A stretch of DNA of 64,000 nt from Ruania alba (GCF_900105765.1 NZ_FNTX01000001.1:1086387-1150386), one strand, 5' to 3'. Positions 31,400-37,958 are shown, numbered from the stretch's first letter. The notes: generated by a model not told the origin, from the letters alone. Made by a program: numbers and translations.

Positions 31400-32602
31400 G
31401 TGGGTGACGCAGGAGCCATCATCGGCTTGATCATCATCGCCCTCGTCGCGTTGTTCGTGATCGTCGCGATCTCGCGTGCGATCCGCATCGTGCCGCAGGC
31501 CGGTGCGCTGATCATCGAGCGGCTCGGCCGCTATCAGTCCACCATGTATGCGGGTCTGCACTTCCTTATCCCGTTCGTCGACCGGATCCGTGCCGGGGTC
31601 GACCTGCGTGAGCGCGTGGTGCCGTTCCGCCCGCAGCCGGTGATCACCTCCGACAACCTCGTGGTGAGCATCGACACCGTCGTCTACTACCAGGTGACGG
31701 ACCCGAAGGCGGCCACCTACGAGATCGCGGACTACATCCAGGCGATCGAGCAGCTCACCGTGACCACGCTGCGTAACATCATCGGTTCGATGGACCTGGA
31801 GCAGACCCTCACCAGCCGTGACCAGATCAACGGTCAGTTGCGTGGTGTGCTCGATGAGGCCACCGGTCGGTGGGGTATCCGCGTGAACCGGGTCGAGCTC
31901 AAGGCGATCGACCCGCCGCCCAGCGTGCAGGGCGCGATGGAGCAGCAGATGCGTGCCGAGCGGGACCGTCGTGCGGCGATCCTGACCGCTGAAGGTGTGA
32001 AGCAGTCCGCGATCCTCACCGCTGAAGGTGAGAAGCAGTCCGCGATCCTGACCGCCGAGGGCCAGGCGCAGGCCGCCATCCTCAAGGCGCAGGGTGAGTC
32101 CCGCGCGATCCTTCAGGTCTTCGACGCGATCCACCGCGGCGACGCCGACCCGAAGCTGCTGGCCTACCAGTACCTGCAGATGCTGCCGGAGATCGCCAAC
32201 GGCACCTCGTCCAAGCTTTGGGTCGTTCCCACCGAGCTCACCGCCGCCCTTGGGTCGATCTCCTCGGCCTTCGGCGACGGCGGGCCCAGCGGTGGCGGCG
32301 GCGTCAGCGGCGGCGGAGCCCCCTCCTCGGGTGGCGGCGGCGAGACTCGCCGCGAGAAGCGCGAGAAGGACCTCGAGCACATCGAGGGGCTTGACGTGGA
32401 ACTGCCGGAGACATCCCTGCAGGACCCTGCGGAGGCCCTTCGCGAGGCCCGCGGCCAGGCGACCGAGGCGACTGCTGAGGCCACTCAGGCTGGCGAGACC
32501 TCCGGACGTCCGTTCGACCCGTCCAGTGCAGCAGGTCAGCGTCCGCCGGAGGGCGAGGAGCCACCGCCCGCCCCGCAGGAACCGTGGCAGCCGCACCAGT
32601 GA
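31400..32602 (+). CDS. SPFH/band-7 (stomatin/slipin) family protein with tandem 11-aa repeats and Gly/Pro-rich tail
   Basis: N-terminal TM, SPFH core, repeats AILTAEG(V/E/Q)KQS x3-4 encoded by 33-bp DNA repeats near 31975-32110. Confidence 0.85.
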   Translation: MGDAGAIIGLIIIALVALFVIVAISRAIRIVPQAGALIIERLGRYQSTMYAGLHFLIPFVDRIRAGVDLRERVVPFRPQPVITSDNLVVSIDTVVYYQVTDPKAATYEIADYIQAIEQLTVTTLRNIIGSMDLEQTLTSRDQINGQLRGVLDEATGRWGIRVNRVELKAIDPPPSVQGAMEQQMRAERDRRAAILTAEGVKQSAILTAEGEKQSAILTAEGQAQAAILKAQGESRAILQVFDAIHRGDADPKLLAYQYLQMLPEIANGTSSKLWVVPTELTAALGSISSAFGDGGPSGGGGVSGGGAPSSGGGGETRREKREKDLEHIEGLDVELPETSLQDPAEALREARGQATEATAEATQAGETSGRPFDPSSAAGQRPPEGEEPPPAPQEPWQPHQ

Positions 32603-32635
32603 CGGGGCAGGAGCCTCGAGGCTGACGCTCTCTCA

Positions 32636-32692
32636 CGCGAATCCCTCGTCGATCTGGTCGGTGACAGCCGCCAGATCGACGGGGGATTCGCG
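32636..32692 (+). terminator. 22-bp-stem inverted repeat (one mismatch) with 13-nt spacer downstream of the SPFH gene
   Basis: cgcgaatccctcgtcgatctgg ... ccagatcgacgggggattcgcg. No U-tract, so an I-shaped terminator typical of high-GC actinobacteria. Confidence 0.4.
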
Positions 32693-32738
32693 TATGCGGC
32701 GTGGAAATTGCTTTCCTGACGCGGTGTAAGTTCGTGGG

Positions 32739-34469
32739 GTGCTCGGTCTTCTTCGCACCTCGCTGACCCCGTATCGCGGTGCTATCACCCTGGTCTGCCT
32801 GCTGCAGCTGGTGCAGACGCTCGCGGCCCTGTATCTGCCGAGCCTGAACGCCGACATCATCTCCCAGGGGGTGGTGCTCGGGGACACCGATCTGATCTGG
32901 CGGATCGGTGGCCTGATGCTGGCCGTCAGCGCCGTGCAGGCCGTGACGAGTGTCGTCGCGGTCTACTTCGGCGCTCGGACGGCCATGTCGCTGGGTCGAG
33001 ATCTGCGCGACGACCTGTTCACCCGCGTGATGCGCTTCTCCACCCAGGAGATGTCCGCGTTCGGGACACCGTCGTTGATCACTCGCTCGACCAACGACGT
33101 GCAGCAGGTCCAGATGTTCGTGTTCATGTCCCTGACGGTGGTGATCATGGCGCCGATCATGCTGATCGGTGGCGTGATCATGGCGGTGCGGGAGGACCCC
33201 GGACTGTCGTTGCTGCTGGTGGCGGTGGTGCCGGTGCTCGGCGTCACGATGGCCTTGGTGGCGATGCGCATGGTGCCCTACTTCCGCTCCATGCAGAAGC
33301 GGATCGACCGGGTGAACGGCATCCTGAGGGAGCAGATCACTGGGATCCGGGTGGTACGCGCTTTCGTGAAGGAAGCCGACGAGGCTCTCCGGTTCGGTAG
33401 CGCCAACGCGACCTTGCGGGACGTGGCCGTGAAGGTCGGGCGCGTGATGGCGTTCGCGATGCCGATGGTCATGCTGATCGTGAACATCGCATCGGTGGCG
33501 GTGATCTGGTTCGGTGGCAGGCGGGTGGACGCGGGCCTGGCCGATATCGGTTCTCTGGTGGCCTTCCTCTCGTACCTGATGTTCATCCTGATGGCCGTGA
33601 TGATGGCCACGATGATGTTCATGTTCGCCCCTCGAGCGGCCGTCTCCTCGGAACGGATCCAGGAGGTGCTCAGCTCGGAGCCGACCGTGCACCCGCCGCA
33701 GCAGGGACAGCGACCCACGCACGTTCGGGGTCTGGTGGAGATGGCGGGTGTGACGTTCCACTACCCGGGCGCCGAGAACGACGTGCTGCACGAGATCGAC
33801 CTGACCGCACGCCCCGGAACCACCACCGCCATCATCGGTTCCACCGGGTCGGGGAAGAGCACGCTGCTGCACCTGGTGCCGCGCCTGTTCGACGTGACCT
33901 CCGGTGCGATCGGGATCGACGGGGTGGACGTGCGCGACCTCGACCCGGCGGTGCTCTCCTCGGTGATCGGACTGGTGCCGCAGAAGCCGTACTTGTTCAC
34001 AGGGACCGTCGCGTCGAACCTGCGGTACGGACGCGCGGACGCCACGGACGACGAGCTCTGGGAGGCGCTGCGGGTCGCGCAGGCGGAGAACTTCGTGCGC
34101 TCCATGGACGGCGGGCTGGACGCAGCGATCGCGCAGGGCGGGACCAACGTCTCCGGTGGGCAGCGGCAGCGGATCGCGATTGCACGTGCCCTGGTGCGCC
34201 GGCCGGCTGTGTACCTGTTCGACGACTCCTTCTCCGCCCTGGACTATGCGACCGACGCGGCGCTGCGCGCTGCCCTGTTCCCGCGCACCCGCCAGGCGAG
34301 TGTGATCGTGGTGGCGCAACGGGTGGCCACGATCCGTGGGGCGGACGAGATCCTGGTGCTCGAGCACGGCCGCGTGGTGGGGCGCGGCACCCATGAGCAG
34401 CTGCTCGCCGAGAATCCGACCTATCAGGAGATCGTGGCGTCCCAGCTCACCGCGGAGGAAGCAGCATGA
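32739..34469 (+). CDS. ABC exporter, fused TMD-NBD half-transporter (first of a pair)
   Basis: 6 TM, GSTGSGKST, VSGGQRQRIAIARAL, LFDDSFSALD. Confidence 0.9.
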   Translation: MLGLLRTSLTPYRGAITLVCLLQLVQTLAALYLPSLNADIISQGVVLGDTDLIWRIGGLMLAVSAVQAVTSVVAVYFGARTAMSLGRDLRDDLFTRVMRFSTQEMSAFGTPSLITRSTNDVQQVQMFVFMSLTVVIMAPIMLIGGVIMAVREDPGLSLLLVAVVPVLGVTMALVAMRMVPYFRSMQKRIDRVNGILREQITGIRVVRAFVKEADEALRFGSANATLRDVAVKVGRVMAFAMPMVMLIVNIASVAVIWFGGRRVDAGLADIGSLVAFLSYLMFILMAVMMATMMFMFAPRAAVSSERIQEVLSSEPTVHPPQQGQRPTHVRGLVEMAGVTFHYPGAENDVLHEIDLTARPGTTTAIIGSTGSGKSTLLHLVPRLFDVTSGAIGIDGVDVRDLDPAVLSSVIGLVPQKPYLFTGTVASNLRYGRADATDDELWEALRVAQAENFVRSMDGGLDAAIAQGGTNVSGGQRQRIAIARALVRRPAVYLFDDSFSALDYATDAALRAALFPRTRQASVIVVAQRVATIRGADEILVLEHGRVVGRGTHEQLLAENPTYQEIVASQLTAEEAA

Positions 34470-34643
34470 GCGCGAGGAGCCCCCGCGTAGGTACGGCGAG
34501 GAACGAGGTGTGCCGGAGTGAGGCACCGCAGTGCTCAGGCAAGGAGAGCACAGCATGAGCGCGAGGAGCCCCCGCGTAGGTACGGCGAGGAACGAGGTGT
34601 GCCGGAGTGAGGCACCGCAGTGCTCAGGCAAGGAGAGCACAGC
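34466..34643 (+). repeat. perfect tandem duplication of an 89-bp unit (34466..34554 and 34555..34643) between the two ABC half-transporter genes; each copy is a 30-codon ORF MSARSPRVGTARNEVCRSEAPQCSGKESTA
   Basis: Seen directly. Units are identical except for the last base (ATG becomes GTG, which is the start codon of gene 2). Junctions: gene1 TGA/ATG, ORFa TGA/ATG, ORFb TGA/GTG of gene 2. All three junctions are 4-nt overlaps. Confidence 0.8.
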
Positions 34644-36665
34644 GTGAGTGATCCGAACGACGTCACCGCCGGGGAGCGTGCCGACGACTCCGAGCTGCAG
34701 GCGCAGGCGAAGGTCGAGGAACGGCCCCGCCCGGGGGGCGGCCCTGCCGGCGGTCTGGCGATGCCGACCGAGAAGCCCAAGGATCTGCTCGGTGCGGCAC
34801 GCCGGATCGTCGGTGCGCTGCGGACGGACCGCATCTGGGTGCTCGTGGCCGTGCTGCTCGGGGTGGTCGGCACCGTCCTGACCGTGATCGGTCCGAAGAT
34901 GCTCGGCAATGCCACGAACATCATCTTCGACGGTCTCGTCGGCCGCGAGCTCGATCCGCAGATGACGCGGGAGGAATGGATCGACGCGCTCCGTGCGTCT
35001 GGGGAGCACACGCGGGCGGACACCCTCGAGGGGATGCCGAACCTGGTCCCGGGCCAGGGAGTGGACTTCGATCGGCTCGCCGCCAGTCTCGGGATCGTGG
35101 TGGTCGTCTATGCCTGCGCCTTCCTGTTCACCTGGTTGCAGGGGCGCATCACCACCACGGTGGTGCAGCAGGTGGTGTTCCGGCTCCGGGAACAGGTGGA
35201 GACGAAGCTGAACCGCCTCCCGTTGCGCTACTTCGACCGGCAGGCCCGCGGTGAGGTGCTCTCCCGGGTGACCAACGACATCGACAATATCGCCCAGAGC
35301 CTGCAGCAGACGCTCTCCCAGCTGATCACGTCGGTGCTGACCGTCGTCGGAGTGGTCGCCATGATGCTGTGGATCTCCTGGCAGCTCGCTTTGGTGGCGC
35401 TCGTGACCATCCCGCTCTCCGCCGTCGTGGTGGGGCAGATCGCGAAGCGGTCGCAACCCGAGTTCGTGGAGCAGTGGAAGCGCACCGGAACGGTGAACTC
35501 CCACGTGGAGGAGATGTACACCGGGCACGACCTGGTGCGCGTGTTCGGCCACGAGCAGGCGGCGGTGGACACGTTCCAGGAGGAGAACGAGCGGCTCTAC
35601 CGTGCCTCGTTCCGAGCCCAGTTCATCACGGGCACCATCCAACCGGTGATGGGCTGGATCGCGAACCTGGGGTACGTGGCGATCGCCGTGCTCGGAGCGT
35701 TGCGGGTGGCCTCGGGCACCATGTCGCTCGGTGACGTGCAGGCGTTCGTGCAGTATTCCCGGCAGTTCTCCCAGCCGATCACTCAGATCGCGTCGTTGAT
35801 GAACCTCATGCAGTCCGGCGCTGCCTCCGCCGAGCGGGTGTTCGACCTGCTGGACGCCGACGAGGAGGATGCCGACCCGCGTGCTCCCGAGACGCTCGGC
35901 CCCGTCTCCGGGCGGGTGGCGTTCGAGGACGTGTCCTTCTCCTACACGCCCGAGCGCCCGCTGATCGAGGACCTCTCCTTCGTGGCGGAGCCGGGTCAGA
36001 CGATCGCGATCGTGGGGCCGACTGGTGCCGGGAAGACGACACTGGTGAACCTCATCATGCGGTTCTACGAGGTGCAGGGTGGTCGAATCACCTTCGACGG
36101 GACCGATACCCGTCACCTGACCCGGGGCGAGCTGCGGTCCAACATCGGCATGGTGCTGCAGGACACCTGGTTGTTCGGCGGCACCATCGCCGAGAACATC
36201 CGGTACGGCTCGCACCGGGAGGTCAACGACGCCGACCTCGTCGCCGCCGCCGAGGCCACCGGTGTGGACCCGTTCGTACGCACCCTGCCCGACGGGTACG
36301 AGACCCGGATGGACGACGAGGGTACCGATGGGACGGCGGTGAGTGCGGGGGAGAAGCAGCTGCTCACGATCGCCCGCGCGTTCCTCGCCGACCCTGCGAT
36401 CCTCATCCTGGACGAGGCCACCAGCTCGGTGGACACCCGCACCGAGGTGCTCGTCCAGGATGCGATGAACGCGCTGCGCAAGGGCCGGACCAGTTTCGTG
36501 ATCGCGCACCGGCTCTCCACCATCCGCGACGCCGACGTGATCCTGGTGATGGAGTCGGGCGCGATCGTGGAGCAGGGCAATCACGCGGACCTGCTCGCCG
36601 CCGGCGGTGCGTACGCACGCCTGTACCAGGCCCAGTTCGCGGCCGCCGCCGCCGAGGTCGAGTAG
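34644..36665 (+). CDS. ABC exporter, fused TMD-NBD half-transporter (second of the pair)
   Basis: GTG 34644 preceded by aaggagag. GPTGAGKTT, VSAGEKQLLTIARAF, LILDEATSSVD. ORF track 34620 start is read-through of the repeat. Confidence 0.9.
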   Translation: MSDPNDVTAGERADDSELQAQAKVEERPRPGGGPAGGLAMPTEKPKDLLGAARRIVGALRTDRIWVLVAVLLGVVGTVLTVIGPKMLGNATNIIFDGLVGRELDPQMTREEWIDALRASGEHTRADTLEGMPNLVPGQGVDFDRLAASLGIVVVVYACAFLFTWLQGRITTTVVQQVVFRLREQVETKLNRLPLRYFDRQARGEVLSRVTNDIDNIAQSLQQTLSQLITSVLTVVGVVAMMLWISWQLALVALVTIPLSAVVVGQIAKRSQPEFVEQWKRTGTVNSHVEEMYTGHDLVRVFGHEQAAVDTFQEENERLYRASFRAQFITGTIQPVMGWIANLGYVAIAVLGALRVASGTMSLGDVQAFVQYSRQFSQPITQIASLMNLMQSGAASAERVFDLLDADEEDADPRAPETLGPVSGRVAFEDVSFSYTPERPLIEDLSFVAEPGQTIAIVGPTGAGKTTLVNLIMRFYEVQGGRITFDGTDTRHLTRGELRSNIGMVLQDTWLFGGTIAENIRYGSHREVNDADLVAAAEATGVDPFVRTLPDGYETRMDDEGTDGTAVSAGEKQLLTIARAFLADPAILILDEATSSVDTRTEVLVQDAMNALRKGRTSFVIAHRLSTIRDADVILVMESGAIVEQGNHADLLAAGGAYARLYQAQFAAAAAEVE

Positions 36666-36746
36666 TAGCGGCAGCGTCGTGATCGGCGCGGGGCCATCGG
36701 CGTCACTCTTTAGGGTGAGTGAACACAGGCAACATCCGCCTCTGGG

Positions 36747-37958
36747 GTGATCCGTTCTCGCGCCCCGATCTGCCACGATGCTCGTGTGCGCATCGCTGTG
36801 GTCGCCGAGTCGTTCCTTCCGCAGGCCAATGGGGTCACGGTGACCCTGCTGCGGTTGCTGGAGTACCTTGCCGCGAACGGGGACGAGGTGATCGTGCTCG
36901 CGCCCGCGGCGGGCCGTGGCCAGGACTCCGTGAGCGTTTACGCCGGTGCCAGCGTGCGGCGTTTCCGTGCCGTCCCGCTGCCGGGGTACAGCGAGCTGCG
37001 ACTCTCCACACCGCGGGTGCGCACGCTGGAGGAGCACCTGCGGTGTTTCGACGCCGACGTGGTGCACCTGGCGGCGCCGTTCATGCTCGGATGGCAGGCG
37101 ATCGGTGCTGCGCACACCCTGGGCCTGCCCTCGGTCGCGGTCTACCAGACCGAGGTGCCCAGCTACGCCAAACGGTACAAGGTGCGCCAGATCGAACCGC
37201 TGCTGTGGCGCCGGATCGAGGACATCCACAAGAGCGCCACGCTCTCCCTCGCGCCGTCCAGCTACGCCTGCCAACAGCTCATCGACCGCGGCGTGCACCG
37301 GGTCGCCGTGTGGCCGCACGGGGTGGACCGGGAGAGGTTCTCCCCGGTGCATCGTGACGAGGCACTGCGCACGTCGTTGCTCACCGATGGTGAGGTGCTC
37401 GTCGGTTACGTCGGACGCCTGGCACGGGAGAAGCAGGTGGAGGACCTGGCGGTGCTGCAACAGCTGCCGGGCGTGCGGGTGGTCGTGGTCGGTGACGGCC
37501 CGCGGGAGGAGTGGTTGCGTCGTACGCTCCCTGGTGCCGTGTTCACTGGCCGGCTCGACGGCGCTGAGCTGCCCCGGATGATGGCCTCCCTCGACATGTT
37601 CGTGCATACCGGCGAGATGGACACCTTTGCGCAGACGATCCAGGAGGCGCAGGCCTGCGGGGTTCCGGTGATCGCCCCGGCCCGGGGCGGTCCGATCGAC
37701 CTCGTCCAGCACGGCGAGACCGGCTTCCTCTACCAACCCGGCCAGCTCGACGCGATGCGCCAGTACGTCGCCACTCTGGCCGCGAACCCGGTGCGACGGG
37801 CAGAGATGGGCCTGGCGGCGCGGGACTCGACGGCGGAACGCACCTGGGAGGCCGTCAACCACCAGGTCACCGTGCACTACCGGAACGCCATCTCCTTCTC
37901 CGCGCGGGACCGTGCCGCGGGCCACCGTCCGGCCCGCCGCTGGTTGCTCACCCGCTGA
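36747..37958 (+). CDS. GT4 family glycosyltransferase (PimB/MgtA-like mannosyl/glycosyl transferase)
   Basis: GT-B fold with the E-x7-E region FVHTGEMDTFAQTIQEAQACGVPVIA. Alternative GTG start at 36786. Confidence 0.8.
   Translation: MIRSRAPICHDARVRIAVVAESFLPQANGVTVTLLRLLEYLAANGDEVIVLAPAAGRGQDSVSVYAGASVRRFRAVPLPGYSELRLSTPRVRTLEEHLRCFDADVVHLAAPFMLGWQAIGAAHTLGLPSVAVYQTEVPSYAKRYKVRQIEPLLWRRIEDIHKSATLSLAPSSYACQQLIDRGVHRVAVWPHGVDRERFSPVHRDEALRTSLLTDGEVLVGYVGRLAREKQVEDLAVLQQLPGVRVVVVGDGPREEWLRRTLPGAVFTGRLDGAELPRMMASLDMFVHTGEMDTFAQTIQEAQACGVPVIAPARGGPIDLVQHGETGFLYQPGQLDAMRQYVATLAANPVRRAEMGLAARDSTAERTWEAVNHQVTVHYRNAISFSARDRAAGHRPARRWLLTR

Follow-up and report, generated by a model that had tools for sequence, protein, structure and literature searches.

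Two identical 89-nt units in tandem separate two ATP-binding cassette (ABC) exporter genes of Ruania alba (Micrococcales, Ruaniaceae), gene 1 and gene 2. The unit is probably an interspersed minisatellite of high-GC actinobacteria, of the type of the interspersed repetitive units of mycobacteria (MIRUs), placed precisely where the stop and start codons of the two ABC genes overlap. The junction is best read as a recently duplicated intercistronic repeat of this type, not as a dedicated relay open reading frame (ORF). The observations that carry this reading are the sequence anatomy of the array, the empty sites of relatives, the presence of the same repeat family at unrelated loci, and the lack of conservation of either the peptide or an RNA structure. 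We found no earlier description of the family. Unless a locus of another genome is named, coordinates refer to the window, the whole 64-kb stretch of R. alba DNA that was analysed.

Results

Overall organization of the repeat array

Tandem Repeats Finder reports 34462-34648 of the window as one strong tandem array, with a period of 89, 2.1 copies, and 98% matches (Table 1). In the register that begins with ATG, the units at 34466-34554 and 34555-34643 are identical at 89 of 89 positions, and the periodic identity reaches 4 nt further left (CAGC) and 5 nt further right, beyond both units. The sole mismatch in the right-hand extension is A at 34555 versus G at 34644. The statement in an earlier note on this DNA that the units differ only in their final base holds for the register starting at 34467, but not for the ATG register. 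A perfect duplication of 89 nt is not due to chance.

Each unit carries an ORF of 30 codons. ORF-a (34466-34558) and ORF-b (34555-34647) encode the same peptide, MSARSPRVGTARNEVCRSEAPQCSGKESTA, which is followed by a stop codon. A unit of 89 nt is not readable through in one frame, and hence needs its own start and stop. Gene 1, with the terminus GCAGCATGA, ends at 34469, and from there the overlaps form a chain, from ATGA (34466-34469) through ATGA (34555-34558) to GTGA (34644-34647). Repeat finding, unit alignment, and translation thus confirm the tandem 89-bp duplication and the two chained ORFs that the earlier note had described. The note had also argued that a length of 89 nt is exactly what keeps every overlap at 4 nt. 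This argument is circular, because duplication of a segment bounded by ATGA and GTGA yields 4-nt overlaps automatically; they are no evidence of design.

Orthologous junctions are empty

We compare the junction with the orthologous loci of R. alkalisoli (L081), R. suaedae (L082), R. halotolerans (L083), R. rhizosphaerae (L084), R. zhangjianzhongii (L085), R. albidiflava (L086), Ca. R. gallistercoris (L001), and Occultella (L002 and L003, from Occultella glacieicola and a related metagenome-assembled genome). The synteny around the gene pair (NfeD, SPFH, ABC, ABC, GT4, SpoU) is kept. In all nine relatives the spacer is absent, and the stop codon of gene 1 overlaps or abuts the start codon of gene 2. 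Their junctions consist of a single ATGA or GTGA overlap, or of CTGATG (adjacent TGA and ATG) in R. albidiflava, whereas the R. alba junction reads ATGA-unit-ATGA-unit-GTGA. A single 89-bp spacer, which the earlier note proposed to look for in orthologous ABC pairs, is present in 0 of the 9.

The repeat family at unrelated loci

A phmmer search with the 30-residue peptide against 1.84 billion representative proteins returns only two matches, P0241 (E 7.8e-8) and P0242 (E 2.3e-6), each of which contains the motif in tandem. P0242 contains SARNPRGGAARNEVRRSEVPQWSRGSDGA in two and a third copies. Its contigs (L089-L091; metagenomic, from three different samples, 68.7% GC) carry 2.3 in-frame tandem units of 87 nt, located at 688-886 in L089. 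The family core, 69 nt long, reads GAGCGCGAGGARCCCYCGCGKAGGTRCGGCGAGGRACGAGGTGYGSCGGAGYGAGGYACCGCAGTGSTC and is identical at 61 of 69 positions (88%) between the R. alba and L089 units; the two arrays align with a BLASTN E value of 2e-39. Tandem Repeats Finder also gives an internal periodicity of ~43-44 nt for the L089 unit.

The host gene of P0242 encodes an Rv3654c-family TadE-like protein. The family domain spans residues 71-180, and the repeats occupy residues 1-70. The repeats lie outside the domain, indicating that they are an N-terminal add-on. They start 9 nt after the ATG of the host gene, and this ATG overlaps the stop codon of an upstream TadE gene. The L089 site is of the same kind as the R. 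alba site, an ATGA operon junction. P0241 contains ...LSERSPREGAPRNEVLRSEAPQRSSVGNG twice, in frame, upstream of a segment that appears MFS-like by eye; a domain search gives no family match for this segment. The occurrence of the family at unrelated loci in other genomes indicates a MIRU-type element instead of a locus-specific spacer.

Further searches add no member. A dimer-alignment search for a third homologue returns P0241 alone, plasmid and phage collections give no match by blastn or tblastn, and viral contigs give 0 matches with three patterns and a protein-based scan. A 50-mer in genome contigs, and a 33-mer and a gapped single-unit pattern in metagenome contigs, also give 0 matches; these patterns, made before the family consensus, were over-specific.

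Several points weigh against the assignment to a MIRU-type element. There are just three independent loci of the family, two of which come from metagenomic sequences. No second copy of the unit is present elsewhere in the 64-kb window or in 1.58 Mb of actinobacterial loci, and the assessment of dispersal within R. alba rests on 64 kb. Over its last ~16-18 nt, the R. alba unit bears no relation to that of L089 (3/16 identical), which makes the boundaries of the element uncertain. The units of L089 and P0241, each of 87 nt, are in frame and have no internal start/stop overlaps, so that the self-contained ORF may be specific to R. alba. Finally, an insertion that predates four species, as proposed below, sits uneasily with 88% core identity elsewhere; it would need constraint, gene conversion, or re-insertion.

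Neither the peptide nor an RNA structure is conserved

In the ORF frame, the R. alba and L089 units differ by 7 nonsynonymous codons and 1 synonymous codon. The codon log-odds of the repeat ORF is -0.69, versus +0.4 to +0.7 for the genes of the window, and the usage is non-native in every frame. Among the codons that the earlier note called rare, AGG (1.9% of Arg codons), GTA (1%), AGT (5.7%), TCA (0%), and ACA (3.9%) are so, as is GCA (5.9%), but GGT (28.5%) is not. We see no sign of purifying selection or of a coding signature on the 30-residue peptide, which therefore does not qualify as a micropeptide by these sequence measures. Conservation between family members lies at the DNA level, not at the peptide level.

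The two-unit region folds with a z score of -0.96, and 31 of 200 shuffled sequences fold at least as well. A 5-bp hairpin, GTGCC-N7-GGCAC, can be seen in the unit. Judged by eye from the alignment of the units, its arms would not pair in the L089 units, and there are no compensatory changes. The unit has no match in Rfam.

Possible relics of the unit in other Ruania species

The ending GAGGAAGCAGCATGA of gene 1 (AEEAA followed by the stop) is common to R. alba, R. rhizosphaerae, R. alkalisoli, and R. suaedae, and the R. alba ending is the ancestral form. Two parts of the unit find a counterpart in relatives. Nucleotides 2-20 (approximately the first 20 nt) match GTGAGCGCGAGGAGTCCCCG (VSARSPR) at the gene 2 start in R. 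alkalisoli and R. rhizosphaerae. This match lies in register with the start codon, and an equally high score is reached by 4 of 2,700 shuffled junctions. Gene 2 of outgroup Ruania and Occultella opens with MSTE.HDPTAGE, without SARSPR. Therefore, the SARSPR start is better taken for a decayed remnant of the element's 5' end, putatively recruited as an N-terminus, than for the ancestral gene start. The N-terminal extension of gene 2 (VSARSPRPHEEA...) measures 22-23 residues in R. alkalisoli (L081 10001-10066) and R. rhizosphaerae (L084 11728-11796), compared with 6-9 residues in outgroups.

At the other end, nucleotides 69-89 of the unit together with GTGAGTGATCCGA match the gene 1 extension and the gene 2 start of R. 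halotolerans with a score of 46, versus a shuffle maximum of 38 over the whole locus. Gene 1 of R. halotolerans (L083 11724-11760) encodes 582 residues instead of 576, with a C-terminal extension of 6 residues and the tail ...AEEASRKGDTA before the stop. These additional residues share homology with the final codons of the repeat ORF in R. alba (SGKESTA and stop). The extension looks like a 3' relic of the element recruited into the C-terminus. Because the AEEAA ending is ancestral, we infer a 71-nt deletion, by which gene 1 became fused with the tail of the unit ORF, as the best explanation of the R. halotolerans form.

The middle 49 nt of the unit show no significant similarity to the junctions or N-terminal coding regions of relatives (236-442 of 500 shuffles score as high). 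A gapped match of this part to R. halotolerans, GGCGAG...GAACGAGG, is suggestive only.

The flanking genes and the start of gene 2

Both flanking genes encode ABC exporter half-transporters with the Pfam domains ABC_membrane and ABC_tran, as the earlier note had assumed. The product of gene 1 is 100% identical to the R. alba protein P0121 and ends with ...TAEEAA, with the TGA at 34467-34469. Its tail contains a Shine-Dalgarno (SD)-like sequence, GGAGGA (34454-34459), 6 nt before the ATG of ORF-a.

The public model of gene 2, P0001, is 100% identical but comprises 634 residues, starting 39 codons later at ATG 34761. The true start is likely GTG 34644, because the N-terminal tail VSDPNDVTAGERADDSELQAQAK upstream of 34761 is conserved in 8 relatives, the segment 34644-34760 has a codon log-odds of +0.24 in frame versus -0.88 and -1.02 off frame, AAGGAG lies 8 nt upstream of the GTG, and the GTG is orthologous to the R. 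halotolerans start ATGAGTGATCCG. A read-through fusion of gene 1 and gene 2 was considered, since the two are in the same frame; in-frame stops within the units rule it out.

Table 1 Features of the ABC-ABC junction in the R. alba window
Feature	Position	Strand	Remarks
Gene 1, ABC exporter half-transporter (transmembrane and ATPase domain), 576 aa	32739-34469	+	Pfam ABC_membrane 3.4e-44, ABC_tran 1.3e-25
Left boundary repeat CAGCATGAG	34462-34470	+	Holds the ATGA overlap of gene 1 stop and ORF-a start
Repeat unit 1, 89 nt	34466-34554	+	ORF-a 34466-34558, TGA overlapping the next ATG
Unit 1 family core	34468-34536	+	61/69 identical to the L089 unit
Unit 1 variable 3' part	34535-34554	+	SD AAGGAG 34541-34546, 8 nt before ATG 34555
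Repeat unit 2, 89 nt	34555-34643	+	Identical to unit 1; ORF-b 34555-34647
Unit 2 family core	34557-34625	+	61/69 identical to the L089 unit
Unit 2 SD AAGGAG	34630-34635	+	8 nt before GTG 34644
Right boundary repeat CAGCGTGAG	34640-34648	+	Holds the GTGA overlap of ORF-b stop and gene 2 start
Gene 2, ABC exporter half-transporter, 673 aa from GTG 34644 (likely start)	34644-36665	+	Pfam ABC_membrane 3.2e-58, ABC_tran 1.6e-28

On the minus strand, an open frame of 1873 residues (32304-37925) runs antisense to the repeat and the two ABC genes; most likely, this frame is a shadow ORF of high-GC DNA, free of stops by composition, and not a gene. Upstream of gene 1, the SPFH/Band_7 gene (31400-32602) contains a 33-nt tandem repeat of 3.3 copies at 31976-32084. 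The repeat is in frame and encodes AILTAEG.KQS repeats, an ordinary coding repeat.

Discussion

Comparison with known intercistronic repeats

MIRUs (Supply et al. 1997, cited through PMC3184786 and PMC12548453) are 40-100 bp long, lie within operons, contain ORFs that overlap the neighbouring genes, have tetranucleotide direct repeats, and show both filled and empty sites (PMC3184786). Apparently they are mobile, with insertion at start codons and coupling of the MIRU ORF at -4 nt (PMC12548453), and their copy number changes fast, at ~2.7e-3 per locus per year (PMC3635867). The R. alba unit resembles them in its size of 89 nt, which falls within the MIRU range, and in its tandem arrangement of 2 identical copies. 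It lies between co-oriented genes that are predicted to form an operon, as the genes abut or overlap in relatives and a scan of the junction finds no promoter-like or terminator-like site. The ends of its ORF overlap the flanking stop and start at the -4 spacing. Its filled site is bounded by ATGA and GTGA, versus nine empty sites, and where the right boundary has its orthologue, R. halotolerans carries CAGCATGAGTGATCCGA, in which the overlap is ATGA. The hosts in both cases are high-GC actinobacteria.

The two differ in that the host here is Ruania, a member of the Micrococcales, and not Mycobacterium. MIRUs occupy tens of loci per genome; the 64 kb of R. alba analysed here contain one locus of the family, which has three loci overall. 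In the other members of the R. alba family, the modules are 87 nt long, in frame, and joined to the downstream gene instead of forming separate ORFs. By analogy, the R. alba repeat would work like a MIRU; by its anatomy, it is a candidate for membership.

Other systems share single features with the unit. Upstream ORFs that deliver ribosomes by termination-reinitiation at ATGA (PMC12548453) have the 4-nt overlaps and the SD within the upstream ORF, and ribosome hand-over is the only plausible role of the short ORF in R. alba. However, this ORF is borne by a repeat and occurs as a chain of two copies, and the orthologous operons lack it. Repetitive extragenic palindromic (REP) elements and bacterial interspersed mosaic elements (BIMEs) and the enterobacterial repetitive intergenic consensus (ERIC)-type repeats of proteobacteria are also short interspersed repeats between the genes of operons, but they are stable, untranslated palindromic stem-loops, whereas the R. 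alba unit is organised around reading frames. A stable conserved stem-loop of the REP/BIME kind is not seen in the unit (z = -0.96, no Rfam match, unpaired arms in L089). In-frame coding minisatellites, or variable-number tandem repeats, are like the L089 and P0241 arrays, which consist of 87 nt (29 codons) and are read with the host gene. In contrast, the R. alba unit of 89 nt works only through its own start and stop.

A model for insertion, decay, and duplication

In the model that we infer, which covers mobility, ancestral insertion, translation, coupling, and slippage, each unit would be translationally self-contained. Its first codon overlaps the preceding stop, and its own TGA overlaps the next start. 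The last 20 nt of the unit would supply AAGGAG-N8-start to whatever comes next, and the tail of gene 1 would supply GGAGGA-N6-ATG to the first unit. Ribosomes could thus be relayed from gene 1 through ORF-a and ORF-b to gene 2, by termination-reinitiation or by local recruitment, with the 30-residue peptide as a probable by-product. With an SD, a start, and a stop in each unit, coupling would be preserved and the element would be tolerated in the operon at any copy number.

The species R. alba, R. halotolerans, R. alkalisoli, and R. rhizosphaerae probably inherited one unit from their common ancestor. This unit would then have decayed differently from lineage to lineage, leaving either a 5' relic fused to gene 2 or, after the 71-nt deletion, a 3' relic joined to gene 1. 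The R. alba unit would have stayed intact and, very recently, gone from one copy to two, either by slippage during replication or by unequal exchange within the CAGC of the flanks. For this step, the flanking repeats CAGCATGAG and CAGCGTGAG would suffice. The A variant stands at the middle junction, which places the exchange in CAGC, and 0 differences in 89 nt suggest that the duplication is very recent or that the copies have been homogenised. The position of the A variant, the two flanks, and the identity of the copies support a recent microhomology-mediated duplication, one of the options of the earlier note, as the immediate cause of the array.

Beyond this locus, it is possible, though we advance it tentatively, that Ruania and other non-mycobacterial actinobacteria carry undescribed small mobile elements that are unrelated to MIRUs in sequence, target the ATGA overlaps of operons, and are translationally transparent, either through their own SD, start, and overlapping stop or as in-frame modules of 29 codons.

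Alternative explanations

A further option of the earlier note was a translated relay ORF. The architecture permits such coupling, with an SD, a start, and an overlapping stop in each unit; every junction is a perfect 4-nt overlap with a good SD at 6-8 nt spacing, and ribosome-delivering short ORFs are a recognised mechanism (PMC12548453). As an evolved, dedicated device, however, in which the ORFs tune the stoichiometry of the ABC halves or code for a small protein with a function of its own and the duplication is an adaptation, the relay is unlikely. The two genes abut or overlap directly in the nine relatives without the spacer, the ORF has non-native codon usage in every frame and no sign of purifying selection or coding signature, the differences from the family relative are 7 nonsynonymous to 1 synonymous, and the overlaps arise automatically from the duplication of a unit with such ends. 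An intercistronic RNA element of the REP/BIME type that stabilises or processes the mRNA would fit the intercistronic position and the 5-bp hairpin, but we consider it highly improbable, as nearly one shuffle in six (31/200) folds as well or better, Rfam gives no match, the scan finds no terminator-like site, and the hairpin arms are unpaired in the L089 units, by inspection, with no compensatory change.

The matches in relatives also bear on a purely local origin, in which the unit would be a frameshifted relic of the fast-evolving N-terminal leader of gene 2, duplicated by microhomology, with no repeat family. The first 20 nt of the unit recur where gene 2 starts in R. alkalisoli and R. rhizosphaerae, the last 20 nt match the R. 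halotolerans junction, and the length of the gene 2 N-terminal tail varies between species. On the other hand, the 69-nt core recurs at 88% identity in an unrelated TadE-like gene and the peptide repeats in a fragment that looks MFS-like, the ancestral gene start was not SARSPR, and the middle 49 nt resemble no junction of a relative; such an origin is very unlikely. A reading of the 5' end of the unit as the native start of gene 2 was dropped once the same core appeared at unrelated loci. The copy number could instead be an assembly artefact, if the genome has one unit or another number and the perfect repeat was mis-resolved. In short-read graphs, a perfect tandem repeat that exceeds the k-mer in length is ambiguous, and P0001 and P0121 are each known from one contig only. 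We regard an artefact as improbable, given that the source contig of 2.28 Mb suggests a high-contiguity assembly, that assemblers tend to collapse tandem repeats and not to expand them, and that the other arrays of the family also have at least 2 copies. The element and the coupling architecture would stand even with one copy.

Implications

In practical terms, the start of gene 2 is corrected, likely to a product of 673 instead of 634 residues, and the array is likely a variable-number repeat that could be used to type strains of R. alba. A second family with MIRU anatomy, in a distant actinobacterial order, would permit a comparative study of the ATGA target rule and of a design that is harmless to translation. 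The locus also illustrates how such an element may decay, lengthening the downstream protein at its N-terminus in one lineage and the upstream protein at its C-terminus in another. If the mobile family unrelated in sequence to MIRUs is real, it would represent a second, independent origin of selfish DNA that preserves translational coupling, and it would provide material from which proteins could gain new extensions at the N- or C-terminus, as the putative relics in gene 2 of R. alkalisoli and gene 1 of R. halotolerans suggest.

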